From assembly GCA_951406725.2 (NCBI GenBank), contig OX597827.1:79298001-79362000 (forward strand): a stretch of 64,000 nucleotides of DNA, read 5' to 3'. The position numbers and the translations under genes were made by a program. How positions within the stretch are numbered: the stretch's first letter is position 1; each line of letters starts with the position of its first letter. The notes beneath the pieces were generated by a model. The model was not told the origin of the DNA and did not search any database. It saw nothing but the letters and a program-made list of their open reading frames with translations. This document shows, one piece after another, positions 145 to 59,667 of the stretch. Source of the DNA: Octopus vulgaris. Its lineage: Eukaryota.

Positions 145-3114
145 CTATGTTGGCTGTAGATAGGTATCTTGTATTTGTTGTCCCTTTAGTATTGTGGCTG
201 CAACTGGATTGTCATTGGTATATTCTGCAAAATATCAAATATACAAACACAAATTACATTTCAACATAACAACTCCAATATATAAAGATAGAAACATTGA
301 TCTTGTATTACACTAAGCATAACATTATATATTGTCCTACAGTAATAAAGGCAATTACATTTATAAGTTATGTTTTGATAAAAGTTACCTGGTTCTGCAG
401 GTATCTCATCATATGGTTTAGTCTTGCCATTACTCTTGCTAGCTTCTCTGTCCTTTTGGGATGTTAAGGTGTCACTGTTGTAAGACATGATGGAACTGGT
501 GCGACGTCCATGACTATAGATTGAATCACATCTCTGTGGATAGTAGAAAGTGGAATCCTGTATAAATACAAGTTTAGATCACTTCTAATAAAACAGTCTG
601 AGGGACTGAAGTTGAGTTTTTTGTAGTAATAACTGTACATAGATGAATAATGGATAAAATACTTCTACCTTCATAATAATAAGCAAAAAAACATCAATTA
701 TCCAAAATAATATTTACCTGAGGCACAGGTGGAAGTCTCCTTTGTGTTGTTGAGAATTTCCATTCATCTGGTGTCTGTTCCATCTCCAGAAAAAACTGAC
801 TTTTAGATTTTATTGTCTGAAGATTTCGGTTAAATATCTCTTCTGCATTTCTTGTTATTGCAACAGGATTGTTAGTCTGATACAGTAATTGTCTCATCTC
901 AGTCTGAGAGAGAAAGTTGGGATTCTCTGCTGTTGTGGGTGAGTTATTTGTGTGATTAATACATCTGAAAACACACAGTGTTATGGACACTACAATAGCC
1001 ACAGATAGTATTACAGCTGCTGCTACAATGATAATTATCCAAGTCATATTCAGGTCGTGACCAGATTGGAATGGCACAGCAGTCAACATTGGAGATGTAT
1101 CATTACTAACAAACAGTGTTAGTATGATAGCAGTTGTTGCTGATTGAACTGGAGTACCACCGTCTTTCACTATAAACTGCAGCTCATATGTTCCTGCATC
1201 ATTTTGGTAAACTGTGCGAGAGAAAGATAACACACCAGTGTGTGAGTTCACTGTAAACAGGTTTTTATCATTGGATCTCAGTATTCCATATGTGAGGAAA
1301 GCATTGTTTCCAGTGTCTTTGTCAGATGCTCTCAGAATTGTGATGTCCTTCTTACTGTGTGGATGGTAGTGGACATCGAGATTGTAAGGGTCATTATTAG
1401 GAAACGTAAAATACGGAGCATTATCATTTTTATCTAGAATCTCAATAACAATATTGGCAGTGTCATTGAGAGAAGGTGTTCCATTATCTTTCACTAAAAC
1501 CTTGAACTTATAGATGTCTTTCATTTCTCGATCTATTGATTGTGATGTAGAAATAAATCCATATTTGGTCAGTTGGAAAGGAATGTTATCATTGTTGTTA
1601 TCATTGATGATAGAATATGTAAGTTGGCCTCCATCTCCAAGATCAGGGTCTGTAGCATTGATGAAGCCAATAGGGAAGTCAACTTTCTGGTTTTCATAGG
1701 TGAGGAATTGGAATGTCTCTTTGGTAAAATGTGGTTCTACATCATTGACATCAGTTACTTTGACAGAGAAATATTTTTTACTTTCTAGTTGAGGTGACCC
1801 CATGTCATGACACACAACAGATACTTTATAGTGGTCCCTTATTTCTCTGTCAAGATGACCCTTAACAATCATTTTATATTCTTTAGAATCTATTTTGGCA
1901 AGTTTAAACTTATCATGTTTTAAATCACAGATAACCTCACCATTAGGTCCACTATCAGTGTCAGTGACCATAACATAAGCTATAAAACTATCTACTTCAC
2001 TGTCTTCTGGAACTGCTGCTGAGCTCTCTGATAAAGGAGATACAAAATCTATGTTTATCAATGGAGCAGTATTCCTATTATTAATCACATAAATGTGAAC
2101 TCTAGCTACTGTCTTTAGAGGAGGGTTGCCGCCATCCTGCGCTTCAATAAATAATTTATAAGATTGCCTTTTACTGAAATGAAAATTATCATGTAAAAAT
2201 AAATCTCCAGTTTTCTTATCTAAAACAAAATATTTCTGGATATTTTGAGATGTTTTATGGTTGAAATGATAAGAAATCTTTCCATTGTCTCCAGAATCTC
2301 GATCTGTGGCTTTTAAAGTAAGAATTGGTAAATGTCTTTGATGTGAATTATTTATAGAGATATTATAGAATTTCTGTGAAAATACAGGTGTGTTATCATT
2401 GACATCTGTCACAGATATGTGTACCTTGAGTGTAGCTGTTTTGGCAGGGTTTCCTCCATCTTTAGCTTCCAGTGTCAACATATATGAATATTTTAGTTCC
2501 CTGTCTAATTTATCTGCTAAAGTCAGTTCAGGTATAAAAATACCATCCTGTTTTGTGACTGAGAGAGAAAATGGTTCTCTTTTACTTTTTTTAATCATAT
2601 ATGTAATTTGAGAATTCTTTATTGAAATATCTTGATCAATGGCATTTAAAAGTGAGATTTTAGTCCCTTTAAATTGGCTTTCGAGAAATTCAATTTCAAC
2701 TTCATTCTGTGGAAACTCTGGAGAATGGTCATTGATGTCTTCTATTAATATTTTTATCCTTAGAATCTTCATAAACGTTTTTCCTTTCCTCACTGCCACC
2801 TTCACAGTTCTAGAACATTCCTTGTTGTATGTACACAGAGACTCAGCATCCAGTGTTTGAGTAGTGTATAGTTTTCCTGAGTTGGTGACATTAAATAAGT
2901 GAGAACCACTCTCGACTGTCCTTTGTAGTTGTGTAAATGTAATGAGAGTGTGTTGTTGATGCGTGAGAGGGTGTGATAAGTTGGAGTCAACAGCAATGTC
3001 TCCTATATAGGTGTGAGGTCTGTCTTCTTCCTTGACATGGTATGCAATATCTATGGACAGTACAAGGGTGATCAGTAAAGGTAGAAGACACAGTAGACCA
3101 ATATATTGTGTCAT
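145..3114 (-). CDS. Protocadherin g1 (signal peptide, 6 EC repeats, TM, cytoplasmic tail), ~873 aa; coding exons 3114-718, 533-389, 224-145
   Basis: Cadherin motifs (LDRE, DxNDN, DxD), Pcdh-type EC1 LDAESLCxxxxxC and a hydrophobic TM. Donor CAG|GTAAAT at 718/717, acceptor CAG|AGA at 534/533, donor CCAG|GTAACT at 389/388, acceptor TGCAG|AA at 225/224. The phases join in frame to EYTNDNPVAATILKGQQIQDTYLQPT*. Confidence 0.93.
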
Positions 3115-6695: not shown

Positions 6696-9600
6696 CTATG
6701 TTGGTTGTAGATAGGTATCTTGTATTTGTTGTCCCTTTAGTATTGTGGCTGCAACTGGATTGTCATTGGTATATTCTGCAAAATATCAAATATACAAACA
6801 CAAATTACATTTCAATATAATAACTCCAATATATAAAGATAGAAACATTGATCTTATATTACACTAAGCATAACATTATATATTGTCCTACAGTAATAAA
6901 GGCAATTACATTTATATGTTATGTTTCGGTAAAAGTTACCTGGTTCTGCAGGTATCTCATCATATGGTTTAGTCTTGCCATTACTCTTGCTAGCTTCTCT
7001 GTCCTTTTGGGATGTTAAGGTGTCACTGTTGTAAGACATGATGGAACTGGTGCGACGTTCTTGACTATGGATTGAATCACATCTCTGTTGATTATAGAAA
7101 AAGGAATCTGATATCAATACAAGTTTAGATCACTCCTAATAAAACATTTCTTATATAAAGTGTATTCTATTTCGATAATGAATATTGTGTTTTGCTATCA
7201 CTAGGACAACAAAGAACAATTAATTCAGAATGTCACAGAAAAGCCAGAAATTTTAACCAAAGGAACGAAACGTTTCATACACATGAGAATCTGAAATAGA
7301 TATTTGAAAGAAATATTTGAATGCACATCAATAATTGATTAAATACTTTTGTATTTATAATCAAAAGGATATCAGAGATGTAAAATAATATTTACCTGAG
7401 GCACAGGTGGAAGTCTCCTTTGTGTTGTTGAGAATTTCCACTCATCTGGTGTCTGTTCCATCTCCAGAAAAAACTGACTTTTAGATTTTATTGTCTGAAG
7501 ATTTCGGTTAAATATCTCTTCTGCATTTCTCGTTATTGCAACAGGATTGTTGGTTTGATACAGTAATTGTCTCATCTCAGTCTGAGAGAGAAAGTTGGGA
7601 TTCTCTGCTGTTGTGGGTGAGTTATTTGTGTGATTAATACATCTGAAAACACACAGTGTTATGGACACTACAATAGCCACAGATAGTATTACAGCTGCTG
7701 CTACAATGATAATTACCCAAGTCATATTCAGGTCGTGACCAGACTGGAATGGCACAGCAGTCAACATTGGAGATGTATCATTACTAACAAACAGTGTTAG
7801 TATGATAGCAGTTGTTGCTGATTGAACTGGAGTACCACCGTCTTTCACTATAAACTGCAGCTCATATGTTCCTGCATCATTTTGGTAAACTGTGCGAGAG
7901 AAAGATAACACACCAGTGTGTGAGTTCACTGTAAACAGGTTTTTATCATTGGATCTCAGTATTCCATATGTGAGGAAAGCATTGTTTCCAGTGTCTTTGT
8001 CAGATGCTTTCAGAATTGTGATGTCCTTCTTACTGTGTGGATGGTAGTGGACATCGAGATTGTAAGGGTCATTATTAGGAAACGTAAAATACGGAGCATT
8101 GTCATTTTTATCCAGAATCTCAATAACAATATTGGCAGTGTCATTGAGAGAAGGTGTTCCATTATCTTTCACTAAAACCTGGAACTTATAGATGTCTTTC
8201 ATTTCTCGATCTATTGATTGTGATGTAGAAATGAATCCATATTTTGTCAGTTGGAAAGGAATGTTATCATTGTTGTTATCATTGATGATAGAATATGTAA
8301 GTTGGCCTCCATCTCCAAGATCAGGGTCTGTAGCATTGATGAAGCCAATAGGGAAGTCAACTTTCTGGTTTTCATAGGTGAGGAATTGGAAAGTCTCTTT
8401 GGTAAAATGTGGTTCTACATCATTGACATCAGTTACTTTGACAGAGAAATATTTTTTACTTTCTAGTTGAGGTGACCCCATGTCATGACACACAATAGAT
8501 ACTTTATAGTGGTCCCTTATTTCTCTGTCAAGATGACCTTTAATAACCATTTTATACTCTTTAGAATCTATTTTAGCAAGGTTAAACTTATCATGTTTTA
8601 AATCACAGATAACCTCACCGTTAGGTCCACTATCATTGTCAGTGACCATAACATAAGCTATAAAACTATCTACTTCACTGTCTTCTGAAACTGTTGCTGA
8701 GCTCTCTGATAAAGGAGATACAAAATCTATATTAATCATGGGTACATTATTTCTGTTGTTAATTATTTGAATCTGAACTGCTGCAACAGACTTTTTTGGT
8801 GGCTTACCTCCATCCATTGCTTCAATAAATAATTTATAAGATTGTTTTTTACTAAATTGAAAATTATCATGTAAAAATAAATCTCCAGTTTTCTTATCTA
8901 AAACAAAATATTTCTGGACATTTCGAGACGTTTTATGGTTGAAATGGTAAGAAATTTTCCCATTATCCTCAGAATCTTGATCTGTGGCTTTTAAAGTAAG
9001 AATTGGTAAGTGTCTTTGATGTGAATTGCTTACAGAAATGTTGTAGAGTTTCTGTGAAAATACAGGTGTATTATCATTGACATCTGTCACAGTTATGTGT
9101 ACCTTGAGTGTAGCTGTTTTGGGAGGATTCCCTCCATCTTTAGCTTCCAAGATCAACATATATGAATCTTTTACTTCCCTGTCTAATCTATCTTCTAGAA
9201 TGAGTTTAGGTATAAAAATACCATCATGTTTTGTGACAGAAAGTGAAAATGGTTCTCTTTTACTTTTCTTAATCATATATGTAATTTGAGAATTTTTGAC
9301 TGAAATATCCTGATCAATGGCATTTAGAAGGGAGACCATTTCCCCTTTTCTCTCTTTCTCAGAAAATTCAATCTCAACTTCATTCTGTGGAAATTCTGGA
9401 GAATGGTCATTGATGTCTTCTATTAATATTTTAATTTTTAGAATCTTCATAAAAGTTTTTCCTTTCCTCACTGCTACTTTAACTGTTCTGGAACATTCCT
9501 TGTTGTATGTACACAGAGACTCAGCATCCAGTGTTTGAGTAGTGTATAGTTTTCCTGAGTTGGTGACGTTAAATAAGTGAGAACCACTATCGACTGTCCT

Positions 9601-12985: not shown

Positions 12986-15900
12986 CTATGTTGGCTGTAG
13001 ATAGGTATCTTGTATTTGTTGTCCCTTTAGTATTGTGGCTGCAACTGGATTGTCATTGGTATATTCTGCAAAATATCAAATATACAAACACAAATTACAT
13101 TCCAATATAACAACTCCAATATATAAAGATAGAAACACTGATCTTATATTACACTAAGCATAACATTATATATTGTCCTACAGTAATAAAGGCAATTACA
13201 TTTATATGTTATGTTTTGATAAAATTACCTGGTTCTGCAGGTATCTCATCATATGGTTTAGTCTTGCCATTACTCTTGCTAGCTTCTCTGTCCTTTTGGG
13301 ATGTTAAGGTGTCACTGTTGTAAGACATGATGGAACTGGTGCGACGTCCTTGACTATGGATTGAATCACATCTCTGTTGATTACAGAAAAATGAATGTTA
13401 TATCAATACAAGTTCAGATGACTCCTAATAAAACAGTTCTCATATAAAGCATATTCTATTTAGATAATGAATATTGTATTTTGCTATCACAAGGACACCA
13501 AAGAACAATTAATTCAGAATGCCACAGAAAAGCCAGAAATTTTAACCAAAGGAACGAAACGTTTCATACACATGAGAATCTGAAATAGATATTTGAAAGA
13601 AATATTTGAATGCACATCAATAATTGATTAAATACTTTTGTATTTATAATCGAAAGGATATTTACCTGAGGCACAGGTGGAAGTCTCCTTTGTGTTGTTG
13701 AGAATTTCCACTCATCTGGTGTCTGTTCCATCTCCAGAAAAAACTGACTTTTAGATTTTATCGTCTGAAGATTTCGGTTAAATATCTCTTCTGCATTTCT
13801 CGTTATTGCAACAGGATTGTTAGTTTGATACAGTAATTGTCTCATCTCAGTCTGAGAGAGAAAGTTGGGATTCTCTGCTGTTGTGGGTGAGTTATTTGTG
13901 TGATTAATACATCTGAAAACACACAGTGTTATGGACACTACAATAGCCACAGATAGTATTACAGCTGCTGCTACAATGATAATTACCCAAGTCATATTCA
14001 GGTCGTGACCAGACTGGAATGGCACAGCAGTCAACATTGGAGATGTATCATTACTAACAAACAGTGTTAGTATGATAGCAGTTGTTGCTGATTGAACTGG
14101 AGTACCACCGTCTTTCACTATAAACTGCAGCTCATATGTTCCTGCATCATTTTGGTAAACTGTGCGAGAGAAAGATAACACGCCAGTGTGTGAGTTCACT
14201 GTAAACAGGTTTTTATCATTGGATCTCAGTATTCCATATGTGAGGAAAGCATTGTTTCCAGTGTCTTTGTCAGATGCTCTCAGAATTGTGATGTCCTTCT
14301 TACTGTGTGGATGGTAGTGGACATCGAGATTGTAAGGGTCATTATTAGGAAACGTAAAATACGGAGCATTATCATTTTTATCTAGAATCTCAATAACAAT
14401 ATTGGCAGTGTCATTGAGAGAAGGTGTTCCATTATCTTTCACTAAAACCTGGAACTTATAGATGTCTTTCATTTCTCGATCTATTGATTGTGATGTAGAA
14501 ATAAATCCATATTTTGTCAGTTGGAAAGGAATGTTATCATTGTTGTTATCATTGATGATAGAATATGTAAGTTGGCCTCCATCTCCAAGATCAGGGTCTG
14601 TAGCATTGATGAAGCCAATAGGGAAGTCAACTTTCTGGTTTTCATAGGTGAGGAATTGGAATGTCTCTTTGGTAAAATGTGGTTCTACATCATTGACATC
14701 AGTTACTTTGACAGAGAAATATTTTTTACTTTCTAGTTGAGGTGACCCCATGTCATGACACACAATAGATACTTTATAGTGGTCCCTTATTTCTCTGTCA
14801 AGATGGCCCTTAACAATCATTTTATATTCTTTAGAATCAATTTTGGCAAGTTTAAACTTATCATGTTTTAAATCACAGATAACCTCACCATTAGGTCCAC
14901 TATCAGTGTCAGTGACCATAACATAAGCTATAAAACTACCAATTTTACTTGCTTCTGAAACTGCTGCTGAGCTCTCTGATAAAGGAGATACAAAATCTAT
15001 ATTAATCATGGGTACATTATTTCTGTTATTAATTATTTGAATCTGAACTGCTGCAACAGACTTTTTTGGTGGCTTACCTCCATCCATTGCTTCAATAAAT
15101 AATTTATAAGATTGCATCTTAGTAAACTGAAAATTATCATGTAAAAATAAATCTCCAGTGTTCTTATTTAATACAAAATATTTCTGGATATTTCGAGATG
15201 TTTTATGGTTGAAATGGTAAGAAATCTTTCCATTGTCTCCAGAATCTTGATCTGTGGCTTTTAAAGTAAGAATTGGTAAATGTCTTTGATGTGAATTATT
15301 GATAGAAATGTTGTACATTTCCTGTGAAAATACAGGTATGTTATCATTAGCATCTGTCACAGTTATGTGTACCTTGAGTGTAGCTGTTTTGGGAGGATTC
15401 CCTCCATCTTTAGCTTCCAAGATCAACATATATGAATCTTTTACTTCCCTGTCTAATCTGTCTTCTAGAATTAGCTCAGGTATAAAAATACCCTTTTGTT
15501 TTGTGACAGAAAGTGAAAATGGTTCTCTTTTACTTTTCTTAATCATATATGTAATTTGGGAATTTTTTATCGAAATATCCTGATCAATGGCATTTAGAAG
15601 GGAGACCATTTCCCCTTTTCTGTCTCTCTCAGAAAATACAATCTCAGCTTCATTCTGTGGAAATTCTGGAGAATGGTCATTGATGTCTTCTATTAATATT
15701 TTTATCCTTAAAATTTTCATAAATGTTTCTTCTTTCCTCACTGCTACTTTAACAATTCTGAAACATTCTTTGTTGTATGTACACAGAGACTCAGCATCCA
15801 GTGTTTGAGTAGTGTAGAGTTTTCCTGAGTTGGTGACATTAAATAAGTGAGAACCACTCTCGACTGTCCTTTGTAGTTGTGTAAATGTAATGAGAGTGTG

Positions 15901-20775: not shown

Positions 20776-23700
20776 CTATGTTGGCTGTAGATAGGTATCT
20801 TGTATTTGTTGTCCCTTTAGTATTGTGGCTGCAACTGGATTGTCATTGGTATATTCTGCAAAATATCAAATATACAAACACAAATTACATTTCAATATAA
20901 CAACTCCAATATATAAAGATAGAAACATTGATCTTGTATTACACTAAGCATAACATTATATATTGTCCTACAGTAATAAAGGCAATTACATTTATATGTT
21001 ATGTTTTGATAAAAGTTACCTGGTTCTGCAGGTATCTCATCATATGGTTTAGTCTTGCCATTACTCTTGCTAGCTTCTCTGTCCTTTTGGGATGTTAAGG
21101 TGTCACTGTTGTAAGACATGATGGAACTGGTACGACGTCCTTGACTATGGATTGAATCACATCTCTGTGGATTAGAAAACAAAGCAGGGTGAATCATTAG
21201 GCTAAAAAGAAGAAACTTTTGCATTTATATTCTAGAATGCCCCAGGTAAGACACAAGGAAGGGTAATACAATCAGACCATCAGAATTATTAATATTCAAT
21301 AATTTATTTGTATAAAAGAATTAGAGAAACAAGTTTAGTTGTTAAATGAAATAATTCTACTAATTCTGAAAGGTGTAAATTGATAGGAAAGCTTTTACAT
21401 TTCTAGAAAGAAGAGGAAAAAATATACAAACTAGAACATAACTGTTATAACCACAACTGTGATATATCATTTCCGAAACATCAATTAAAATAATATTTAC
21501 CTGAGGCACAGGTGGAAGTCTCCTTTGTGTTGTCGAGAATTTCCATTCATCTGGTGTCTGTTCCATCTCCAGAAAAAACTGACTTTTAGATTTTATTGTC
21601 TGAAGATTTCGGTTAAATATCTCTTCTGCATTTCTCGTTATTGCAACAGGATTGTTAGTCTGATACAGTAATTGTCTCATCTCAGTCTGAGAGAGAAAGT
21701 TGGGATTCTCTGCTGTTGTGGGTGAGTTATTTGTGTGATTAATACATCTGAAAACACACAGTGTTATGGACACTACAATAGCCACAGATAGTATTACAGC
21801 TGCTGCTACAATGATAATTACCCAAGTCATATTCAGGTCGTGACCAGACTGGAATGGCACAGCAGTCAACATTGGAGATGTATCATTACTAACAAACAGT
21901 GTTAGTATGATAGCAGTTGTTGCTGATTGAACTGGAGTACCACCGTCTTTCACTATAAACTGCAGCTCATATGTTCCTGCATCATTTTGGTAAACTGTGC
22001 GAGAGAAAGATAACACACCAGTGTGTGAGTTCACTGTAAACAGGTTTTTATCATTGGATCTCAGGATTCCATATGTGAGGAAAGCATTGTTTCCAGTGTC
22101 TTTGTCAGATGCTCTCAGAATTGTGATGCCCTTCTTACTGTGTGGATGGTAGTGGACATCGAGATTGTAAGGGTCATTATTAGGAAACGTAAAATACGGA
22201 GCATTATCATTTTTATCTAGAATCTCAATAACAATATTGGCAGTGTCATTGAGAGAAGGTGTTCCATTATCTTTCACTAAAACCTTGAACTTATAGATGT
22301 CTTTCATTTCTCGATCTATTGATTGTGATGTAGAAATAAATCCATATTTTGTCAGTTGGAAAGGAATGTTATCATTGTTGTTATCATTGATGATAGAATA
22401 TGTAAGTTGGCCTCCATCTCCAAGATCAGAGTCCGTAGCATTGATGAAGCCAATAGGGAAGTCAACTTTCTGGTTTTCATAGGTGAGGAATTGGAATGTC
22501 TCTTTGGTAAAATGTGGTTCTACATCATTGACATCAGTTACTTTGACAGAGAAATATTTTTTACTTTCTAGTTGAGGTGACCCCATGTCATGACACACAA
22601 TAGATACTTTATAGTGGTCCCTTATTTCTCTGTCAAGATGGCCCTTAACAATCATTTTATATTCTTTAGAATCTATTTTGGCAAGTTTAAACTTATCATG
22701 TTTTAAATCACAGATAACCTCACCATTAGGTCCACTATCAGTGTCAGTGACCATAACATAAGCTATAAAACTACCAATTTTACTTGCTTCTGAAACTGCT
22801 GCTGAACTCTCTGTTAAAGGAGATACAAAATCTATATTTATCAATGGAGCATTATTCTCATTATTAATTACATGAAGCTGAACTCTGGTAACAGATTTTT
22901 TGGGTGGCTGTCCTCCATCCCTTGCTTCAATAAACAATTTATAAGATTGCTTTTTACTAAATTGAAAATTATCGTGTAAAAATAAATCTCCAGTTTTCTT
23001 ATTTAATACAAAATATTTCTGGACATTTTGAGATGTTTTATGGTTGAAATGATAAGAAATCTTTCCATTGTCTCCAGAATCTTTATCTGTGGCTTTTAAA
23101 GTAAGAACTGGTAAATGTCTTTGATGTGAATTATTTATAGAGATGTTGTAGAGTTTCTGTGAAAATGAAGGTGTGTTATCATTGACATCTGTTACAGATA
23201 TGTGTACCTTGAGTGTAGCTGTGTTGGGAGGGTTTCCTCCATCTTTAGCTTGAACTGCTAAAATATATGAGTCTTGAAGTTCCCTATCTAATGTTTCTTC
23301 TAGAATGAGTTCAGGTATGAAAATACCATCCTGTTTTGTGACAGAGAGAGAAAATGGTTCACTCTTGCTTTTTTCAATCATATATGCAAGTTGGGAATTT
23401 TTTATTGAAATATCTTTATCAATTGCATTTAGAAGAGATATTCTAGTTCCTTTACTGTCTGTCTCAGAAAATGCAATTTCAACTTCATTCTGTGGAAATT
23501 CTGGAGAATGGTCATTGATGTCCTGTATCAATATTTTTATTTTAAGGATTTTCATAAAGGTTTGTCCCTTTCTCACAGCTACTTTAACTATTCTGGAACA
23601 TTCCTTGTTGTATGTACACAGAGACTCAGCATCCAGTGTTTGAGTAGTGTATAGTTTTCCTGAGTTGGTGACATTAAATAAGTGAGAACCACTCTCGACT

Positions 23701-29972: not shown

Positions 29973-32900
29973 CTATGTTGGCTGTAGATAGGTATCTTGT
30001 ATTTGTTGTCCCTTTAGTATTGTGGCTGCAACTGGATTGTCATTGGTATATTCTGCAAAATATCAAATATACAAACACAAATTACATTTCAATATAACAA
30101 CTCCAATATATAAAGATAGAAACATTGATCTTGTATTACACTAAGCATAACATTATATATTGTCCTACAGTAATAAAGGCAATTACATTTATATGTTATG
30201 TTTTGATAAAAGTTACCTGGTTCTGCAGGTATCTCATCATATGGTTTAGTCTTGCCATTACTCTTGCTAGCTTCTCTGTCCTTTTGGGATGTTAAGGTGT
30301 CACTGTTGTAAGACATGATGGAACTGGTGCGACGTCCTTGACTATGGATTGAATCACATCTCTGTGGATTATAGAAAGAGGAATCTTATATCAATACAAG
30401 TTTAGATCACTCCTAATTATTTGTTTGTATATAAAGTGTATTGCATTTCTATAATGAATACTGTAACTGTTTTGATATCTGTAACATTATACAAAATAAT
30501 CAATTCAAATGGCGAAAGCTATACAAAAAATATTAACTAAAGACATAAAACATTATTTATATATGAGGGACTGAAGTTGAGTTTTCTGTAGCAATAATCG
30601 TACATATGTCAATAATGGATTGAATATTTTTATAAGAAATAAAACAAAAACATCTATTACCCAAAATAATAATTACCTGAGGCACAGGTGGAAGTCTCCT
30701 CTGTGTTGTTGAGAATTTCCACTCATCTGGTGTCTGTTCCATCTCCAGAAAAAACTGACTTTTAGATTTTATTGTCTGAAGATTTCGGTTAAATATCTCT
30801 TCTGCATTTCTCGTTATTGCAACAGGATTGTTAGTCTGATACAGTAATTGTCTCATCTCAGTCTGAGAGAGAAAGTTGGGATTCTCTGCTGTTGTGGGTG
30901 AGTTATTTGTGTGATTAATACATCTGAAAACACACAGTGTTATGGACACTACAATAGCCACAGATAGTATTACAGCTGCTGCTACAATGATAATTACCCA
31001 AGTCATATTCAGGTCGTGACCAGACTGGAATGGCACAGCAGTCAACATTGGAGATGTATCATTACTAACAAACAGTGTTAGTATGATAGCAGTTGTTGCT
31101 GATTGAACTGGAGTACCACCGTCTTTCACTATAAACTGCAGCTCATATGTTCCTGCATCATTTTGGTAAACTGTGCGAGAGAAAGATAACACACCAGTGT
31201 GTGAGTTCACTGTAAACAGGTTTTTATCATTGGATCTCAGTATTCCATATGTGAGGAAAGCATTGTTTCCAGTGTCTTTGTCAGATGCTCTCAGAATTGT
31301 GATGTCCTTCTTACTGTGCGGATGGTAGTGGACATCTAGATTGTAAGGGTCATTATTAGGAAACGTAAAATACGGAGCATTATCATTTTTATCTAGAATC
31401 TCAATAACAATATTGGCAGTGTCATTGAGAGAAGGTGTTCCATTATCTTTCACTAAAACCTTGAACTTATAGATGTCTTTCATTTCTCGATCTATTGGTT
31501 GTGATGTAGAAATAAATCCATATTTTGTCAGTTGGAAAGGAATGTTATCATTGTTGTTATCATTGATGATAGAATATGTAAGTTGGCCTCCATCTCCAAG
31601 ATCAGGGTCTGTAGCATTGATGAAGCCAATAGGGAAGTCAACTTTCTGGTTTTCATAGGTGAGGAATTGGAATGTCTCTTTGGTAAAATGTGGTTCTACA
31701 TCATTGACATCAGTTACTTTGACAGAGAAATATTTTTTACTTTCTAGTTGAGGTGACCCCATGTCATGACACACAATAGATACTTTATAGTGGTCCCTTA
31801 TTTCTCTGTCAAGATGGCCCTTAACAATCATTTTATATTCTTTAGAATCTATTTTGGCAAGTTTAAATTTATCATGTTTTAAATCACAGCTAACCTCACC
31901 ATTAGGTCCACTATCAGTGTCAGTGACCATAACATAAGCTATAAAACTACCAATTTTACTTGCTTCTGAAACAGCTGCTGAACTCTCTGATAAAGGAGAT
32001 ACAAAATCTATATTAATCAATGGAGCATTATTCTGGTTATTAATAATGTAAATCTGGACTTTAGTTACAGAACTTAAGGGTGGATTTCCTCCATCTCGTG
32101 CTTCAATAAATAATTTATAAGACTGCTTTTTACTAAAATGAAAATTATCATGTAAAAATAGATCTCCAGACTTCTCATTTAATACAAAATATGTCAGGAC
32201 ATTTTGAGATGTTTTATGGTTGAAATGGTAAGAAATCTTTCCATTGTCTCCTGAATCTTGATCTGTGGCTTTTAAAGTAAGAATTGGTAAATGTCTTTGA
32301 TGTGAATTACTTATAGAGATGTTGTAGAGTTTCTGTGAAAATGCAGGTGTATTATCATTGACATCTGTCACAGATATGTGTACCTTGAGTGTAGCTGTTT
32401 TGGGAGGGTAGCCTCCATCTTTAGCTTCCAAAGTCAATATATATTTGTCTTTGAGTTCTCTGTCTAATTTATCTTCCAATATTAATTCAGGTATGGAGAC
32501 ACCATCATGTCTTTTTTTGATTGAGAGAGAAAATGGTTCTCTTTTATTTTTCTTGATCATATATGTTATTTGAGAATTCTTTATTGAAATATCTTTATCA
32601 ATGGCATTTGGAAGAGGAATTTTAGTACCTTTACTCTCCCGCTCAGAAAATTCAATTTGAACTTCATTCTTTAGAAATTCTGGAGAATGGTCATTAATGT
32701 CATCTATTAATATTCTTATTTTTAATATTTTCATAAATGTTTCTTCTTTCCTCACTGCTACTTTAACTATTCTGGAACATTCCTTGTTGTATGTACACAG
32801 AGACTCAGCATCCAGTGTCTGAGTAGTGTATAGTTTTCCTGAGTTGGTGACATTAAATAAGTGAGAGCCACTTTCGACTGTCCTTTGTAGTTGTGTAAAT

Positions 32901-37772: not shown

Positions 37773-40700
37773 CTATGTTGGCTGTAGATAGGTATCTTGT
37801 ATTTGCTGTCCCTTTAGTATTGTGGCTGCAACTGGATTGTCATTGGTATATTCTGCAAAATATCAAATATACAAACACACAAATTACATTCCAACATAAC
37901 AACTCCAATATATAAAGATAGAAACATTGATCTTATATTACACTAAGCATAACATTATATATTGTCCTACAGTAATAAAGGCAATTACATTTATATGTTA
38001 TGTTTTGATAAAAGTTACCTGGTTCTGCAGGTATCTCATCATATGGTTTAGTCTTGCCGTTACTCTTGCTAACTTCTCTGTCCTTTTGGGATGTTAAGGT
38101 GTCACTGTTGTAAGACATGATGGAACTGGTACGACGTTCTTGACTATGGATTGAATCGCATCTCTGTGGATTATAGAAAAAATTAATCTTGTATCAAATA
38201 CAAGTTTAGATTACAGCTAATAAAACAGTCCTTATATAAAGCGTTGGTGCAGAATCCTGCCTGATCATTTCCTGTCTAGTCGTCCAACCTATGCCAGCAT
38301 GGAAGATGGATGTTAAACAATGATTATAAAGGTGATAATAATATTGTAACTGCTCTGCTATCATTAAGACAATAATGATTAATTAATGCAAAGTCACAGA
38401 TTAACTATCAATTTTGATTAAAGTAAGAAATTTTCATATGTATGAGAATCTGAAGTTGATAGTTTATAAATATATTTGAAAATATGTGAATAATGGATAA
38501 AATAATTTTGTATTTAAAATCAAAAGGGTATCAGACGTAAAATAATATTTACCTGAGGCACAGGTGGAAGTCTCCTCTGTGTTGTTGAGAATTTCCACTC
38601 ATCTGGTGTCTGTTCCATCTCCAGAAAAAACTGACTTTTAGATTTTATTGTCTGAAGATTTCGGTTAAATATCTCTTCTGCATTTCTCGTTATTGCAACA
38701 GGATTGTTAGTCTGATACAGTAATTGTCTCATCTCAGTCTGAGAGAGAAAGTTGGGATTCTCTGCTGTTGTGGGTGAGTTATTTGTGTGATTAATACATC
38801 TGAAAACACACAGTGTTATGGACACTACAATAGCCACAGATAGTATTACAGCTGCTGCTACAATGATAATTACCCAAGTCATATTCAGGTCGTGACCAGA
38901 CTGGAATGGCACAGCAGTCAACATTGGAGATGTATCATTACTAACAAACAGTGTTAGTATGATAGCAGTTGTTGCTGATTGAACTGGAGTACCACCGTCT
39001 TTCACTATAAACTGCAGCTCATATGTTCCTGCATCATTTTGGTAAACTGTGCGAGAGAAAGATAACACACCAGTGTGTGAGTTCACTGTAAACAGGTTTT
39101 TATCATTGGATCTCAGTATTCCATATGTGAGGAAAGCATTGTTTCCAGTGTCTTTGTCAGATGCTCTCAGAATTGTGATGTCCTTCTTACTGTGTGGATG
39201 GTAGTGGACATCTAGATTGTAAGGGTCATTATTAGGAAACGTAAAATACGGAGCATTATCATTTTTATCTAGAATCTCAATAACAATATTGGCAGTGTCA
39301 TTGAGAGAAGGTGTTCCATTATCTTTCACTAAAACCTTGAACTTATAGATGTCTTTCATTTCTCGATCTATTGGTTGTGATGTAGAAATGAATCCATATT
39401 TTGTCAGTTGGAAAGGAATGTTATCATTGTTGTTATCATTGATGATAGAATATGTAAGTTGGCCTCCATCTCCCAGATCAGGGTCTGTAGCATTGATGAA
39501 GCCAATAGGGAAGTCAACTTTCTGGTTTTCATAGGTGAGGAATTGGAATGTCTCTTTGGTAAAATGTGGTTCTACATCATTGACATCAGTTACTTTGACA
39601 GAGAAATATTTTTTACTTTCTAGTTGAGGTGACCCCATGTCATGACACACAATAGATACTTTATAGTGGTCCCTTATTTCTCTGTCAAGGTGGCCCTTAA
39701 CAATCATTTTATATTCTTTAGAATCTATTTTGGCAAGTTTAAACTTATCATGTTTTAAATCACAGATAACCTCACCATTAGGTCCACTATCATTGTCAGT
39801 GACCATAACATAAGCTATAAAACTACCAATTTTACTTGCTTCTGAAACTGCTGCTGAGCTCTCTGATAAAGGAGATACAAAATCTATATTTATCAATGGA
39901 GCAGAATTCTGATTATTGACTACATGAATCTGGACTTTGGTTACAGAACTAAGGGGAGGTTTTCCTCCATCTTGTGCTTCTATAAATAATTTATAAGATT
40001 GCTTTTTACTAAAATGAAAGCTGTCATGTAAAAATAAATCTCCAGTTTTCTTATTTAATACAAAATATTTCTGAATATTTCGAGATGTTTTATGGTTGAA
40101 ATGATAAGAAATCTCTCCATTTTGTCTTGAATCTTTATCTGTGGCCTCTAAAGTAAAAATTGCTAAATGTCTTTGATGTGAATTATTTATAGAAATGTTA
40201 TAGACTTTCTGTGAAAATACAGGTACGTTATCATTGACATCAGTTACAGATATGTGTACCTTGAGTGTAGCTGTTTTGGGAGGGTTCCCTCCATCTTTAG
40301 CTTCCAGGGTCAACATATACGAGTCTTTTAGTTCCCTGTCTAATTTGTCTCCTAGAACTAGAGTAGGTATGAAGACACCATCATAACGCTTTTCAACTGA
40401 GAGAGAAAATGGTTCTCTCTTAGTTTTCTTAATCACATATGTTATTTGAGAATTCTTTATTGAAATATCTTCATCAATAGCATTCAGAAGAGAGATTTTA
40501 GTTCCTTTACTCTCCCTTTCAGAAAATTCAATTTCAACTTCATTTTGTGGAAATTCTGGTGAATGGTCATTGATGTCTTCTATTAATATTTTTATCTTTA
40601 GAATTTTCATAAATGTTTCTTCTTTCCTCACTGCTACTTTAACAATTCTGGAACATTCCTTGTTGTATGTACACAGAGACTCAGCATCCAGTGTTTGAGT

Positions 40701-45745: not shown

Positions 45746-48677
45746 CTATGTTGGCTGTAGATAGGTATCTTGTATTTGTTGTCCCTTTAGTATTGTGGCT
45801 GCAACTGGATTGTCATTGGTATATTCTGCAAAATATCAAATATACAAACACAAATTACATTTCAATATAACAACTCCAATATATAAAGATAGAAACATTG
45901 ATCTTGTATTACACTAAGCATAACATTATATATTGTCCTACAGTAATAAAGGCAATTATATTTATATGTTATGTTTTGATAAAAGTTACCTGGTTCTGCA
46001 GGTATCTCATCATATGGTTTAGTCTTGCCATTACTCTTGCTAGCTTCTCTGTCCTTTTGGGATGTTAAGGTGTCACTGTTGTAAGACATGATGGAACTGG
46101 TGCGACGTCCTTGACTATGGATTGAATCACATCTCTGTTGATTAGAAAACAGAGCAGAGTGAATAATGTTAAATACAAGACATGTTAACATTTGTATTCT
46201 AAAATGTTCCTGATAAAAGACAAGAAAGGCATGCTTTTAAAATGTGTAGAAATATTATGAAATTTCTTCAACTATATTTACCTGAGGCACAGGTGGAAGT
46301 CTCCTTTGTGTTGTTGAGAATTTCCACTCATCTGGTGTCTGTTCCATCTCCAGAAAAAACTGACTTTTAGATTTTATTGTCTGAAGATTTCGGTTAAATA
46401 TCTCTTCTGCATTTCTCGTTATTGCAACAGGATTGTTAGTCTGATACAGTAATTGTCTCATCTCAGTCTGAGAGAGAAAGTTGGGATTTTCTGCTGTTGT
46501 GGGTGAGTTATTTGTGTGATTAATACATCTGAAAACACACAGTGTTATGGACACTACAATAGCCACAGATAGTATTACAGCTGCTGCTACAATGATAATT
46601 ACCCAAGTCATATTCAGGTCGTGACCAGACTGGAATGGCACAGCAGTCAACATTGGAGATGTATCATTACTAACAAACAGTGTTAGTATGATAGCAGTTG
46701 TTGCTGATTGAACTGGAGTACCACCGTCTTTCACTATAAACTGCAGCTCATATGTTCCTGCATCATTTTGGTAAACTGTGCGAGAGAAAGATAACACACC
46801 AGTGTGTGAGTTCACTGTAAACAGGTTTTTATCATTGGATCTCAGTATTCCATATGTGAGGAAAGCATTGTTTCCAGTGTCTTTGTCAGATGCTCTCAGA
46901 ATTGTGATGTCCTTCTTACTGTGTGGATGGTAGTGGACATCGAGATTGTAAGGGTCATTATTAGGAAACGTAAAATACGGAGCATTATCATTTTTATCTA
47001 GAATCTCAATAACAATATTGGCAGTGTCATTGAGAGAAGGTGTTCCATTATCTTTCACTAAAACCTGGAACTTATAGATGTCTTTCATTTCTCGATCTAT
47101 TGGTTGTGATGTAGAAATAAATCCATATTTTGTCAGTTGGAAAGGAATGTTATCATTGTTGTTATCATTGATGATAGAATATGTAAGTTGGCCTCCATCT
47201 CCAAGATCAGGGTCTGTAGCATTGATGAAGCCAATAGGGAAGTCAACTTTCTGGTTTTCATAGGTGAGGAATTGGAATGTCTCTTTGGTAAAATGTGGCT
47301 CTACATCATTGACATCAGTTACTTTGACAGAGAAATATTTTTACTTTCTAGTTGAGGTGACCCCATGTCATGACACACAATAGATACTTTATAGTGGTCC
47401 CTTATTTCTCTGTCAAGATGGCCCTTAACAATCATTTTATATTCTTTAGAATCTATTTTGGCAAGTTTAAATTTATCATGTTTTAAATCACAGATAACCT
47501 CACCATTAGGTCCACTATCAGTGTCAGTGACCATAACATAAGCTATAAAACTATCTACTTCACTGTCTTCTGAAACTGCTGCTGAGCTCTCTGATAAAGG
47601 AGATACAAAATCTATATTTATCAATGGAGCATTATTCTGGTTATTGACTATGTGAATCTGAACTGCTGCAACAGATTTTTTGGGTGGCTTTCCTCCATCT
47701 CTTGCTTCAATAAATAACTTATAAGACTCCTTTTTACTAAAATGAAAGTTGGCATGTAAAAATAAATCTCCAGTTTTCTTATCTAATACAAAATATTTCT
47801 GGATATTTCGAGATGTTTTATGGTTGAAATGATACAAAATCCTTCCATTGTCTCCAGAATCTTTATCTGTGGCCTTTAAAGTAAAAATTGGTAAATGTCT
47901 TTGATGTGAATTACTTACAGAGGTGTTGTACAGGTCGTGTGAAAATACAGGTGTGTTATCATTGACATCAGTTACAGATATGTGTACCTTCAGTGTAGCT
48001 GTTTTGGGAGGGTTCCCTCCATCTTTAGCTTCCAAGGTTAACATGTATGAGACTTTCACTTCCCTGTCTAACTTATCTTCAAGAATTATTTCAGGTGTGA
48101 AAATACCTTTGTGCTTTGTGACAGAGAGAGAAAATGGTTCTCTTTTATTTTTCTTGATCATATATGTAATTTGGGAATTTTTTACTGAAATATCTTCATC
48201 AATAGCATTCAGAAGAGATATTTTATCGCCTTTTCTATCTCTTTCAGAAAATTCAATTTCAACTTCATTCTGTGGAAATTCTGGGGAATGATCATTGATG
48301 TCATCTATTAATATTTTAATTCTTAATATTTTCAAAAATGTTTTCCCTTTCCTCACTGCTACTTTAACAATTCTGGAACATTCCCTGTTGTATGTACACA
48401 GAGACTCAGCATCCAGTGTCTGAGTAGTGTATAGTTTTCCTGAGTTGGTGACATTAAATAAGTGAGAACCACTCTCGACTGTCCTTTGTAGTTGCGTAAA
48501 TGTAATGAGAGTGTGTTGTTGATGTGTGAGAGGGTGTGATAAGTTGGAGTCAACAGCAATGTCTCCAATATAGGTGTGAGGTCTGTCTTCTTCCTTGACA
48601 TGGTATGTAATATCTATGGACAGTACAAGGGTGATCAGTAAATGTAGAAGACACAGTAGACCAATATATGCTGTCAT
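45746..48677 (-). CDS. Protocadherin g7, frameshifted as assembled (1-bp deletion, T6 to T5 at 47338-47342); exons 48677-46282, 46134-45990, 45825-45746
   Basis: Full-length homolog, 2396 bp instead of 2397; no other disablement seen. Pseudogene or sequencing error. Confidence 0.8.
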
Positions 48678-51032: not shown

Positions 51033-51745
51033 CATCATCATTGTCGTTTAACGTCTGCTTTCCATGCTAGCATGGGTTGGACGGTTTGACTGGGGTCTGG
51101 GAAGCCAGGAGACTGCACCAGGCTCCAGTCTGATCTGGGTGCCCTTCCTAACGCCAACCACTCCAAGAGTGCAGTGGGTACTTTTTTACGAGTCACTGGC
51201 ACAGGGGTCACAGGGGGCTGACATTGACTGCGATCGGATGGTGCTTTTTACGTGACACCGGCATGGAAGCGAGTCAAGGTGACATATCATCTTTGTCGTT
51301 TAACGTTCGCTTTCCATGCTGGCATGGGTTGGACAGTTTGACTGAGGTCTGGAGAGCCAGAAGGCTGCACCAGGCTCCAATCTGATCTGGCAAAGTTTCT
51401 ACAACTGGATGCCCTTCCTAACGCCAACCACTCCAAGAGTCACTGGCACAGGGGTCACAGGGGGCTGACATTGACAGCAATTGGATGGTGCTTTTTACAC
51501 GCCACCGGCATGGAAGCCAATCAAGGTGGCATATCATCATTGTCTCTTAACGTTCGCTTTCCATGCTGGCATGGGTTGGACAGTTTGACTGAGGACTGCC
51601 GAGCCAGAAGGCTGCACCAGGCTCCAAAATGATCTGGCAAAGTTTCTACAACTGGATGCCCTTCCTAATGCCAACCACTCCAAGAGTGTAGTGGGTGCTT
51701 TTTACATGCCACCAGCATGAGGGCCAGTCCCGCAGCATTGGCAAC
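51033..51745 (-). mobile_element. Three tandem copies of SINE family B (~250 bp period)
   Basis: Units start near 51033, 51283 and 51530. Confidence 0.8.
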
Positions 51746-54925: not shown

Positions 54926-57889
54926 CTATGTTGGCTGTAGATAGGTATCTTGTATTTGTTGTCCCCTTAGTATTGTGGCTGCAACTGGATTGTCATTGGT
55001 ATATTCTGCAAAATATCAAATATACAAACACAAATTACATTTCAATATAACAACTCCAATACATAAAGATAGAAACACTGATCTTATATTACACTAAGCA
55101 TAACATTATATATTGTCCTACAGTAATAAAGGCAATTACATTTATATGTTATGTTTTGATAAAAGTTACCTGGTTCTGCAGGTATCTCATCGTATGGTTT
55201 AGTCTTGCCATTACTCTTGCTAGCTTCTCTGTCCTTTTGGGATGTTAAGGTGTCACTGTTGTAAGACATGATGGAACTGGTACGACGATCTTGACTATGG
55301 ATTGAATCGCATCTCTGTTGATTAGAAAACAGAGCTGAGTGAATGCTAAATAGAAGTCTGAAACATTAATATTTGTATTCTAAAGAAGAGTGAATATGAT
55401 TGACTGATAAAATGAAATAAAATATAAAGGCATGCTTTTAAAATGTGATCACAAATATCTAACAAGAAAATTATTTTAAAATATATTTACCTGAGGCACA
55501 GGTGGAAGTCTCCTCTGTGTTGTTGAGAATTTCCACTCATCTGGTGTCTGTTCCATCTCCAGAAAAAACTGACTTTTAGATTTTATTGTCTGAAGATTTC
55601 GGTTAAATATCTCTTCTGCATTTCTCGTTATTGCAACAGGATTGTTAGTCTGATACAGTAATTGTCTCATCTCAGTCTGAGAGAGAAAGTTGGGATTCTC
55701 TGCTGTTGTGGGTGAGTTATTTGTGTGATTAATACATCTGAAAACACACAGTGTTATGGACACTACAATAGCCACAGATAGTATTACAGCTGCTGCTACA
55801 ATGATAATTACCCAAGTCATATTCAGGTCGTGACCAGACTGGAATGGCACAGCAGTCAACATTGGAGATGTATCATTACTAACAAACAGTGTTAGTATGA
55901 TAGCAGTTGTTGCTGATTGAACTGGAGTACCACCGTCTTTCACTATAAACTGCAGCTCATATGTTCCTGCATCATTTTGGTAAACTGTGCGAGAGAAAGA
56001 TAACACACCAGTGTGTGAGTTCACTGTAAACAGGTTTTTATCATTGGATCTCAGTATTCCATATGTGAGGAAAGCATTGTTTCCAGTGTCTTTGTCAGAT
56101 GCTCTCAGAATTGTGATGTCCTTCTTACTGTGTGGATGGTAGTGGACATCGAGATTGTAAGGTCATTATTAGGAAACGTAAAATACGGAGCATTATCATT
56201 TTTATCTAGAATCTCAATAACAATATTGGCAGTGTCATTGAGAGAAGGTGTTCCATTATCTTTCACTAAAACCTTGAACTTATAGATGTCTTTCATTTCT
56301 CGATCTATTGGTTGTGATGTAGAAATAAATCCATATTTTGTCAGTTGGAAAGGAATGTTATCATTGTTGTTATCATTGATGATAGAATATGTAAGTTGGC
56401 CTCCATCTCCAAGATCAGGGTCTGTAGCATTGATGAAGCCAATAGGGAAGTCAACTTTCTGGTTTTCATAGGTGAGGAATTGGAATGTCTCTTTGGTAAA
56501 ATGTGGTTCTACATCATTGACATCAGTTACTTTGACAGAGAAATATTTTTTACTTTCTAGTTGAGGTGACCCCATGTCATGACACACAATAGATACTTTA
56601 TAGTGGTCCCTTATTTCTCTGTCAAGATGGCCCTTAACAATCATTTTATATTCTTTAGAATCTATTTTGGCAAGTTTAAATTTATCATGTTTTAAATCAC
56701 AGATAACCTCACCATTAGGTCCACTATCAGTGTCAGTGACCATAACATAAGCTATAAAACTATCTACTTCACTGTCTTCTGAAACTGCTGCTGAGCTCTC
56801 TGATAAAGGAGATACAAAATCTATATTTATCAATGGAGCAGTATTCTGGTTATTAATAATGTGAATCTGGACTTTGGTTACAGAACTTAAGGGTGGATTT
56901 CCTTCATCCTGTGCTTCAATAAATAATTTATAAGATTGCTTTTTACTAAAATGAAAATTATCATGTAAAAATAGATCTCCAGTTTTCTTATCTAATACAA
57001 AATATTTCTGGATATTTCGAGATGTTTTATGGTTGAAATGGTAAGAAATCTTTCCATTGTGTCCAGAATCTTGATCTGTGGCTTTTAAAGTAAGAATTGG
57101 TAAATGTCTTTGATGTGAATTACTTATAGAGATGTTGTAGAGTTTCTGTGAAAATACAGGTGTGTTATCATTGACATCTGTCACAGATATGTGTACCTTG
57201 AGTGTAGCTGTTTTGGGAGGGTTCCCTCCATCTTTAGCTTCCAGTGTCAACATGTAAGAGTCTTTGAGTTCCCTGTCTAATTTGTCTCCTAACACTAGAG
57301 CTGGTATGAAAACACCATCATATCGCTTTTCAACTGAGAGAGAAAATGGTTCTCTTTTACTTTTCTTAATCATATATGTAATTTGAGAATTCTGTATTGA
57401 AATATCTTGATCAATGGCATTTAAAAGTGAGATTTTAGTACCTTGAAGGTGACTCTCAAGAAATTCAATTTGAACTTCATTCTTTGGGAATTCTGGTGAG
57501 TGGTCATTGATGTCTTCTATTAATATTTTTATCCTTAGAATCTTCATAAAAGTTTTTCCTTTCCTCACTGCTACTTTAACAATTCTGGAACATTCCTTGT
57601 TGTATGTACACAGAGACTCAGCATCCAGTGTTTGAGTAGTGTATAGTTTTCCTGAGTTGGTGACATTAAATAAGTGAGAACCACTCTCGACTGTCCTTTG
57701 TAGTTGTGTAAATGTAATGAGAGTGTGTTGTTGATGTGTGAGAGGGTGTGATAAGTTGGAGTCAACAGCAATGTCTCCTATATAGGTGTGAGGTCTGCCT
57801 TCTTCCTTGACATGGTATGTAATATCTATGGACAGTACAAGGGTGATCAGTAAATGTAGAAGACACAGTAGACCAATATATGCTGTCAT
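54926..57889 (-). CDS. Protocadherin g8, frameshifted as assembled (GGG to GG at 56161-56162); exons 57889-55491, 55314-55170, 55005-54926
   Basis: Full-length homolog, 2399 bp instead of 2400; no other disablement seen. Confidence 0.8.
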
Positions 57890-59492
57890 GTCTGGGATTC
57901 TTCATCACATTTCAGCAGGAGAAATTTCTACAAAACACCAGAAACATTTAAAGTTTATGTATAATTCAACAAATCTAATTTTATTTATAATAATCATTAT
58001 GAAACATATTTCTGTCTGTAAACGTGTTCCATAAGTCCCAACTGTATAGTCTTCTGGGATCTGACAATCTACAGGACAATACATAACGAGAGTTATCTCC
58101 CTCAAATAAACCTCACTCATTTATCTTAAATATTGTGCTGTTTATCTAGTCTCAATGTTTTACATTGTATCTCTCAGAATATTGTCGTTGAATTAAACGT
58201 TAGCAATTAACATGTTTTAGGTTTAATGTTCATAATTTATGAATAGATTAATGTATTTGGAGCTCAATTTAAATTGCCTGTCCTAACACTCTGACTGATT
58301 ACAAAAATCATTTAATAAAAATATCTGCCATCACAATCCTAACGATACAGTTATTTTTCCTGTTCCAAGAACAATTTTGGAATGAACAATGTTTGAACAG
58401 TTATAAGGATTGCTACAGGCTGGAATATAATAACATTTATTCTTAGCTCAGAAAGAACACTTCCACTTTTTCTTTGTCGCCTATTCCCAAGAATCAATAG
58501 GAAAACTCCCATTCAAACTAAGAAATATTCAAAGATGCTATGGACTCATTAAACACACTAACAAAATATGCATATTATTATTATAATCATTATTATTATT
58601 CTCTTCTTCTTCTTCTTCTAACATCAATTTTCCAGGCTAGCATACGTTGGACTGTTTGATATAAGCTGGCAAGCTAGAAGGACTGCATGAAAGCCAGCTG
58701 TCTAGTTTGCCATTGTTTTGATGATTGGATGCCCTTCCTAATGCCAACAACCTTTACGGCGAGTACTGGGACGTTTTATGTGGCACAAGCAAATTCACCA
58801 AGTAACTCGCAAGACATATATGTATGTATATGTGTGTGTATACACACACACTGAGTTTATACATTGTCCTTGAGAACACCTATCCATCTCAACGAAAGTG
58901 GAGCTCTAAGAGTATATCACTCATGTCTCTGCTCTGCACACAATCTGTCCCTGGTAAATCTCTTCTCTCACACAACTTATCTTTTTAACACCCATTTCTC
59001 CTAAAACTCATCTTCCTAACACCCTTCTCTCCATCAGTTTTCTGACTATGCCACTATAAACTCAGCTGCTTCCACTATGAGGGTGGAAGCATACATATTT
59101 CATCACCCCTACTGTCCACCCTCCCTTGAACCACTTCATTTTTCTCATGTATTCTTAATATCATACCGTTTCAAATTATTTTCCACAGAAAGGCTCTTCC
59201 ACCCCCACCCTCTTTCCCCTCTACACGGCCACTTCATTCTGCAAATGGTAACCCTCTTCCTATGACCTAAGATCACCTCCCACCATTTCCTCCTTTATGT
59301 ATTCTTCACTTTGTCCCTGACACTGTGCACCTCTCTTCCACCCAACTTGACCCATCCAATTCCCAACAGCATGTTAAGTGGACAGATGATGATGATAAAG
59401 GTAATATATATTTGTATGGATGCATGCATATAAATATGGACAGGTCTCACATTTTGCTTTTCTGATATTCTCATCCTCACAAATATTTTCTC

Positions 59493-59667
59493 CATCATCA
59501 TCATCATCATCATTTAACGTCCGTTTTCCGTGCTAGCACGGGTTGGATGGTACGACCGGGGTCTGGGAAGCCAGAAGGCTGCACCAGGCTCCAGTCTGAT
59601 CTGGCAGTGTTTCTACAGCCGGATGTCCTTCCTAATGCCAACCACTCCGTGAGTGTAGTGGGTGCTT
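59493..59667 (-). mobile_element. SINE family B
   Basis: (cat)n tail plus body as at 18061. Confidence 0.75.

Follow-up and report, generated by a model that had tools for sequence, protein, structure and literature searches.

The window, i.e., the whole 64,000 nt stretch of Octopus vulgaris DNA analysed (C14:79,298,001-79,362,000), carries eight protocadherin genes on the same strand (g1–g8). They belong to a tandem array of 26 close paralogs at C14 79.17-79.39 Mb, which is adjoined by 13 more distant paralogs, the 26 plus 13 same-strand genes spanning C14 79.17-79.61 Mb. A single large exon of each window gene encodes a signal peptide, six cadherin repeats (EC1–EC6) and a membrane helix. 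The repeats matched the Pfam families Cadherin and Cadherin_2, a hydrophobic helix lies 3′ of EC6 in g1, and the six repeats, one transmembrane helix and protocadherin-type EC1 place the genes among the protocadherins of the coleoid expansion. Each of the 120 database matches listed for g1, out of 549, came from Octopus or Argonauta, and among these the nearest relatives were octopod protocadherins in same-strand sub-arrays; one protein labelled O. vulgaris is 100% identical to g1 across 85% of the g1 length. The array fits the protocadherin sub-arrays reported for octopus chromosome 14 (PMC9068888). The features referred to below are as follows, with residues numbered from the Met of g1.

718..3114, minus strand: large coding exon of g1, with signal peptide, EC1–EC6, transmembrane helix and cytoplasmic start (810-aa frame, Pfam repeats, splice joint)
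389..533, minus strand: next (cytoplasmic) exon of g1 (spliced contigs of runs X1 and X5; array-level evidence)
2776..2790, minus strand: EC1 F–G hairpin tip of g1, RKGKT, with the Lys112 codon at 2779-2781 (sequence; placed between strands F and G by the model)
1990..2007, minus strand: EC4 A′–B turn of g1, EDSEVD, with the codons of D371 at 2002-2004 and E373 at 1996-1998 (sequence and model)
2071..2730, minus strand: EC2–EC3 of g1, the variable mosaic middle (mean amino acid identity 79% and 85%, 23 paralogs)
2758..2802, minus strand: EC1 segment of g1 from residue 105 on strand F to 119 on strand G, with between-clade charge swaps with EC4 382/412
1879..1971, minus strand: EC4 segment of g1 from residue 382 on strand B to 412, where strand E starts, family-wide partners of 105/119
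8668..9468, minus strand: g2, K/acidic class, RKGKT at 9454-9468 and EDSEVD at 8668-8685
14938..15738, minus strand: g3, E/basic class, RKEET at 15724-15738 and EASKIG at 14938-14955
22773..23573, minus strand: g4, RKGQT at 23559-23573 and EASKIG at 22773-22790
31949..32752, minus strand: g5, RKEET at 32738-32752 and EASKIG at 31949-31966
39825..40628, minus strand: g6, RKEET at 40614-40628 and EASKIG at 39825-39842
47553..48353, minus strand: g7, RKGKT at 48339-48353 and EDSEVD at 47553-47570; one base missing from an A run where EC4 ends
56762..57565, minus strand: g8, RKGKT at 57551-57565 and EDSEVD at 56762-56779; one base missing from a C run of EC6

In contigs from two runs, each of a different study and presumed to be of RNA, position 718 is spliced onto 533, with a GT..AG intron removed; because the 3′ parts of the paralogs are 99% alike, these contigs attest the array and not g1 alone. 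The large exon of g1 is spliced into its own next exon, 184 nt away, and the layout is not one of variable first exons with a shared constant exon. Contigs of two runs depart from the genome at 3147, 33 nt 5′ of the g1 start codon, which suggests a spliced 5′ untranslated exon for g1. A 31-nt tandem repeat occurs once per gene unit (at 5559, 11789, 19646, 28466, 36720, 44498, 53964 and 61631), and its recurrence downstream of each gene indicates that whole units, including their downstream parts, were duplicated. No long reading frame was found at 48.7-55.3 kb of the window. A 247-nt tandem duplication at 51190-51687, in a GC-richer intergenic stretch, and a stretch of skewed composition near 58000-60000 are possibly inserted repeats. 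One-base frameshifts, mostly in short homopolymer runs, affect six of the 23 closest genes (g7 at 47,340, g8 at 56,150, L003, L005, L006 and L020) and are probably assembly errors; all six genes belong to the class with Lys112 and DSEVD (6/13 vs. 0/10 in the other class).

A preliminary description of this DNA had pointed to two short patches, RKGKT late in EC1 and EDSEVD at the start of EC4, and the coordinates it gave for g1 (2776-2790 and 1990-2007) are exact, on the minus strand. Its report that the two sites correspond in eight of eight genes was also reproduced: g1, g2, g7 and g8 combine RKGKT with EDSEVD, and EASKIG accompanies RKEET in g3, g5 and g6 and RKGQT in g4. The swap of charge that it described between the types applies to genes with Lys112 versus Glu112 and does not extend to g4, which is not a full charge swap because Gln112 is neutral. 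The window alone is weak evidence (Fisher p = 0.029, eight genes), and its E/Q112 types sit as one block, g3–g6. An EC3 site (D299N) also split the eight genes perfectly, and was dropped as a third partner on showing r2 = 0.04 across 23 genes.

Across the rest of the array the correspondence held, with 17 of the 18 genes outside the window in agreement (p = 3.8e-4). The rule relating residue 112 to the EC4 patch is thus obeyed by 25/26 genes of the whole array (p = 2e-6), the lone exception being L004, whose open frame combines KEET with DSEVD. The EC1 signal is confined to residue 112 (r2 0.84 vs. 0.54 for residue 111; 0.15 and 0.27 for the next two variable bases), and residues other than Lys112 are found on several local haplotypes (KEE, KGE, KGQ, REE and KAE). 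The EC4 patch is a single 13-nt block with six linked differences, and the types lie in short blocks along the array (ADDDDDDDAADDADDAAAADDAA). We regard it as virtually certain that the co-variation between residue 112 and the EC4 patch is real. Five of the class differences at 2779-2784 and 1990-2004 are A/G changes on the coding strand. A-to-I editing, which is common in coleoids, could in principle recode Lys112 or Lys373 as Glu; contigs conflate editing with paralog differences. Pairing of the EC1 and EC4 sites in the mRNA was rejected by inspection, both being purine-rich and non-complementary.

The linkage scan covered 23 of the 26 genes, the three most divergent being set aside, at 130 sites with the minor form in at least 6 genes. 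Mean r2 fell from 0.24 below 10 nt to 0.115 at 10-30 nt and 0.067 at 30-60 nt, and past 60 nt was 0.041-0.064, chance being 1/22 = 0.045; this decay to the chance level indicates that conversion in short tracts has made mosaics of the array genes. Of the 6,639 site pairs separated by 100 nt or more, the six with the highest r2 (0.84) join base 334 (codon 112) to the six patch bases in EC4, with a family-wise P of 0.009 by block permutation (60, 100 or 150 nt blocks; 0.9% of 5,000 runs) and of 0.008 by residue-level permutation. Variable bases 5-50 nt from either site show little or no link (r2 0.01-0.27). The second-best distant pairs, EC2 192/198 with EC3 328-343 (r2 0.50-0.63), are suggestive without reaching significance by themselves, a maximum of 0.63 being reached in a third of permutations; in g1 they lie at 2521-2541 and 2086-2133, where EC2:EC3 contact is expected.

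Genes of one type proved no more similar to one another than to genes of the other type, whether 5′ of the patches (p = 0.80), between them (p = 0.72) or 3′ of them (p = 0.21), and neither the intron (p = 0.17) nor 600 nt of upstream sequence (p = 0.085) gave a type-specific ancestry signal. The earlier argument that linkage or ancestry is insufficient therefore stands, with linkage at background beyond 60 nt and no ancestry of type in coding or non-coding flanks. The gene pairs on which it was built are as described: g2 and g3 are near-identical in EC2–EC3 (6.5% different, the second-closest pair among 23 genes), g6 and g8 have EC2 columns in common, and each pair is of opposite types. Mean amino acid identity among the 23 paralogs is 95/79/85/94/99/99% for EC1–EC6, so that the two alleles persist within domains (EC1 and EC4) that are otherwise homogenised.

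Of 20 Argonauta hians proteins from the matching array, 16 contained both sites, and all 16 agree, eight having Lys with DSELD and eight Glu with ASKVN-like patches (p = 1.6e-4). For O. sinensis, a close sister of O. vulgaris and not an independent replicate, 13 of the 14 distinct units with both sites at the expected spacing agree (gene models of altered spacing and duplicates omitted); the exception, P0123, is the reverse mismatch, KGKT with ASKIG, in an open frame. Mismatched paralogs, which by the preliminary description would count against its reading if frequent, are rare (1/26 in the array, 1/14 in O. sinensis and 0/16 in Argonauta). When the two patches were left out of the tree, nine Argonauta array genes formed a clade separate from that of the 23 octopus genes. 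Each clade contains both types, and the Argonauta patches (DSELD and ASKVN) are species-specific, a pattern that is one of concerted evolution with the two-allele pairing retained. Pooling octopus and Argonauta rows for r2 yielded species differences only and was dropped. Among a few, mixed ENA/Logan proteins, P0308, P0320, P0321 and P0322 fit the rule and P0311 does not. No named decapodiform (squid or cuttlefish) protein was present among the matches listed, and every one of the 150 matches listed among 50%-identity representatives is a giant multi-repeat cadherin.

The wider family was sampled by a pattern search (134 matches, 100 listed), from which 77 new genes were added and 8 dropped (five broken or partial, three non-protocadherins), giving, with the two arrays, a set of 108 genes; because it requires Gly at 375, the pattern would overlook any genes elsewhere with a DSEVD-like patch. 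The charges of residue 112 and of 371-375 are anti-correlated, with rho -0.69 for the whole set of 108, -0.60 for 47 dispersed genes and -0.72 for 59 Argonauta proteins, and not significantly so in the 13-gene neighbour array (-0.23). The 112/371 switch is absent from a second array, with the EC4 site invariant in 22 genes. This array (C14:80.01-80.26 Mb, L061-L085) has uniform EDIKVG in EC4, and Lys, or Gly then Lys, in EC1. The 108 genes, the 59 Argonauta proteins and 17 labelled O. bimaculoides (mostly near-identical orthologs) make up 184 rows, of which 151 are charged at residue 112. The rule is obeyed by 141 of these, Lys/Arg112 going with an acidic residue (Asp/Glu) at 371 and Asp/Glu112 with any other residue there, and is broken by 10. 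Phylogenetically independent pairs gave 11.3 in the same direction, 0 opposite and 3.7 unchanged (p about 0.001), or 5.2:0 of 8 (p = 0.06) without the window array and its Argonauta counterparts. Residue 371 is the position most charge-anti-correlated with 112 (r = -0.73; next -0.42), and by MI-APC the pair ranks 2 unweighted, 5 at 90% and 33 at 80% down-weighting among 70,650 inter-domain pairs. Judged from these alignments, residues 112 and 371 make up the informative pair.

The five strongest charge anti-correlations all join EC1 to EC4 (105/119 with 382/412, and 65 with 356). Lys105 and Glu412 with an uncharged 382 occur in 78/108 genes, and Asp/Glu105 with Lys382 and Lys/Arg412 in 28/108; Arg65/Asp356 is found in 45/108 and Glu65/Lys356 in 9/108. 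Clade structure also yields strong positive charge correlations (95 with 382/412, r = 0.9), and these swaps are largely single clade-level events (at 105/119/382/412 mostly one), so that they are consistent with an interface without being independent proof of it.

A monomer model (mean pLDDT 88.6) places residue 112 at the tip of the EC1 F–G hairpin and residues 371-375 in the EC4 A′–B turn. In EC1, residue 105 is on strand F, 119 on G and 65 just past C; in EC4, 382 is on strand B, 412 at the start of E and 356 on A. Strand naming follows general cadherin anatomy, as does the calcium role assigned to the PEN-type motif, and the EC4 patch comes right after the Glu (residue 370) of that motif. 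The solved folds nearest to the EC1–4 model are EC1–4 of delta and clustered protocadherins, and the top co-varying or charge-swapped pairs sit on the EC1 C–F–G and EC4 A–B–E–D faces, a placement that is indirect, sequence-based and partly clade-level. In vertebrate dimers these two faces meet, with EC1 strand G and EC4 strand B at the centre (PMC7082078). Residue 382 aligns with K338 of gammaB (counted along the alignment), and a salt bridge between K338 and E41 of EC1 separates subfamilies there (PMC5106212).

The proposal that the two patches form an interface is well founded for EC1, where 112 is on the F–G hairpin, a common binding element of the vertebrate EC1:EC4 interface (PMC5115871), and less so for EC4, where the patch is outside the named contacts, these being a loop within strand A, strand B and the D–E loop (PMC5001838, PMC5115871). 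The EC1 F–G loop is reported to contact the loop within EC4 strand A (PMC5001838), the octopus counterpart of which (358-364) is almost invariant in the array, and the patch at 371-375 lies about ten residues past it, so that direct contact between 112 and 371 is something we only infer. The octopus F–G hairpin is about three residues longer than those of gammaB4 and alpha7, which may let 112 reach 371-375, and in an antiparallel dimer the EC1 tip would point to the base of the partner EC4, the site of the A′–B turn. It is somewhat more likely than not that 112 directly faces 371/373 of the partner.

Vertebrate clustered protocadherins (alpha, beta and gamma), like those of octopus, have six repeats in one large exon and stand in a tandem array. 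Conserved EC1 and EC5 with variable EC2–EC3 are common to both (96/69/59/85/98/84% for EC1–EC6 of mouse alpha, PMC4978886, vs. the 95/79/85/94/99/99% given above), as are opposite-charge EC1:EC4 pairs setting classes apart. The charge-switch principle is already established in vertebrate protocadherins, with the E41-K338/R340 switch of gammaB and the residue pairs 111/294 and 128/257 as examples (PMC5106212), and the octopus case is a variant. The vertebrate switch divides subfamilies, whereas that of octopus segregates inside one homogenising array, and its pairing of the F–G tip with the A′–B turn differs from the vertebrate pairs. Unlike the vertebrate clusters, the octopus genes arose by whole-gene duplication and have no common constant exons (PMC9068888), and the two expansions are reported to be independent (PMC9068888, PMC4978886). 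Delta-protocadherins (Pcdh1, 8, 10, 17, 18 and 19) are the best structural matches (Z 26-27.5, rmsd 6-9.5 Å, about 410 residues), have the extended EC4 strand A loop also seen in the octopus model, and carry subtype-specific EC1:EC4 salt bridges, e.g., Glu96-Lys398 of Pcdh1 (PMC7082078). Unlike the octopus array, they are single dispersed genes, 31-34% identical, without conversion among dozens of neighbours. The available parts of two accounts of the octopus chromosome 14 expansion (PMC9068888, PMC6339937) contain no domain-level or interface analysis, that of the second stating that nothing is known of cephalopod protocadherin adhesion specificity, and the available part of a review covers number and exon structure only (PMC10084454). 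A literature search, with subscription papers and supplements outside its scope, found no interface or co-variation study of cephalopod protocadherins.

The co-variation has probably been kept by selection on the trans EC1:EC4 interface. It could instead be a neutral relic of two ancestral types that were duplicated and then scrambled by conversion at all but two spots. Types in short blocks along the array would fit such a history, as would an EC4 patch that is one 13-nt block with six linked differences, and distant sites do stay linked where conversion seldom covers them. However, EC1 and EC4 rank with the most homogenised parts (95% and 94%), little or no linkage extends to variable bases 5-50 nt away from the two sites, the coding and non-coding flanks lack an ancestry signal, and the pattern recurs with different sequences in Argonauta and in distant subfamilies; the neutral reading is largely refuted, and we consider it improbable. 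Still less credit can be given to chance or a collapsed-repeat assembly artefact, although one-base frameshifts in 6/23 genes are typical of poorly polished repeats, and D299N shows that another 8/8 site arose in the window. These are refuted by replication in the records of two other species; both EC4 forms, moreover, are present in contigs of independent runs, and a chimeric assembly would destroy, not make, a link across 780 nt.

A functional coupling located elsewhere is the more substantial rival, and we think it unlikely: the sites might answer to a third partner, to lattice packing (EC1 being near the EC4–EC5 junction of another molecule) or to the calcium site beside residue 370. Co-variation is blind to the identity of the partner, and the EC4 patch both falls outside the named contact elements and follows the PEN-type Glu. 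Opposite-charge pairing is, on the other hand, a prediction of a two-fold antiparallel dimer, and the other top pairs are on the canonical EC1:EC4 faces. The extended form of calcium-bound protocadherin EC1–4 (PMC5001838) makes an intrachain contact unlikely. Global charge balance was rejected for the array, since residue 112 does not follow EC2–EC3 charge there (rho 0.12) or across the genome (-0.05), and does so weakly in Argonauta (-0.38).

Taken overall, selection probably maintains self-complementarity of an antiparallel EC1:EC4 trans interface, which would set up two adhesion classes over a shuffled EC2–EC3. Octopus protocadherins would, by analogy with vertebrate structures, bind across cells as antiparallel EC1–EC4 dimers, and short gene conversions of a few tens of bases each, as the decay of linkage shows, shuffle the paralogs. 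Conversion at a single end would bring like charges close together in the homodimer and would be removed by selection unless the other end followed. Dimers across classes would clash at both EC1:EC4 contacts, and EC2–EC3 would provide finer identity within each class. The lock-and-key code of homophilic alleles first proposed thus survives as a two-state class switch, replicated and not explained by linkage, and not as an isoform code, most of the diversity being in EC2–EC3. Vertebrate EC1:EC4 is described as mainly an affinity region and EC2:EC3 as the specificity region (PMC5001838, bioRxiv 10.1101/493106), so the barrier between classes may be modest, and we put the prospects of a measurable one at about even.

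More tentatively, and with somewhat less than even confidence, the array may hold a two-tier neuronal adhesion code generated by gene conversion and not by promoter choice, in which a binary EC1:EC4 switch multiplies EC2–EC3 identities, the switch is a balanced haplotype pair predating the Octopus–Argonauta split, and selection edits each new mosaic for self-complementarity. If so, the mismatched genes (L004, all-acidic, and P0123, all-basic) would be poor self-binders and mutually complementary, a heterophilic route. The residues to swap are pinpointed (one EC1 codon and five EC4 residues), and the near-isogenic g2/g3 and the mismatched L004 and P0123 are natural controls. The array is a case of long-range epistasis persisting in genes where linkage otherwise decays within 60 bases. 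The EC1–4 dimer has been proposed to be ancestral (PMC5001838), and the co-variation is sequence evidence for a vertebrate-type antiparallel interface under selection in octopods, which bears on whether cephalopod neurons owe specific self-recognition to their large protocadherin expansion, as vertebrate neurons do to the clustered genes.
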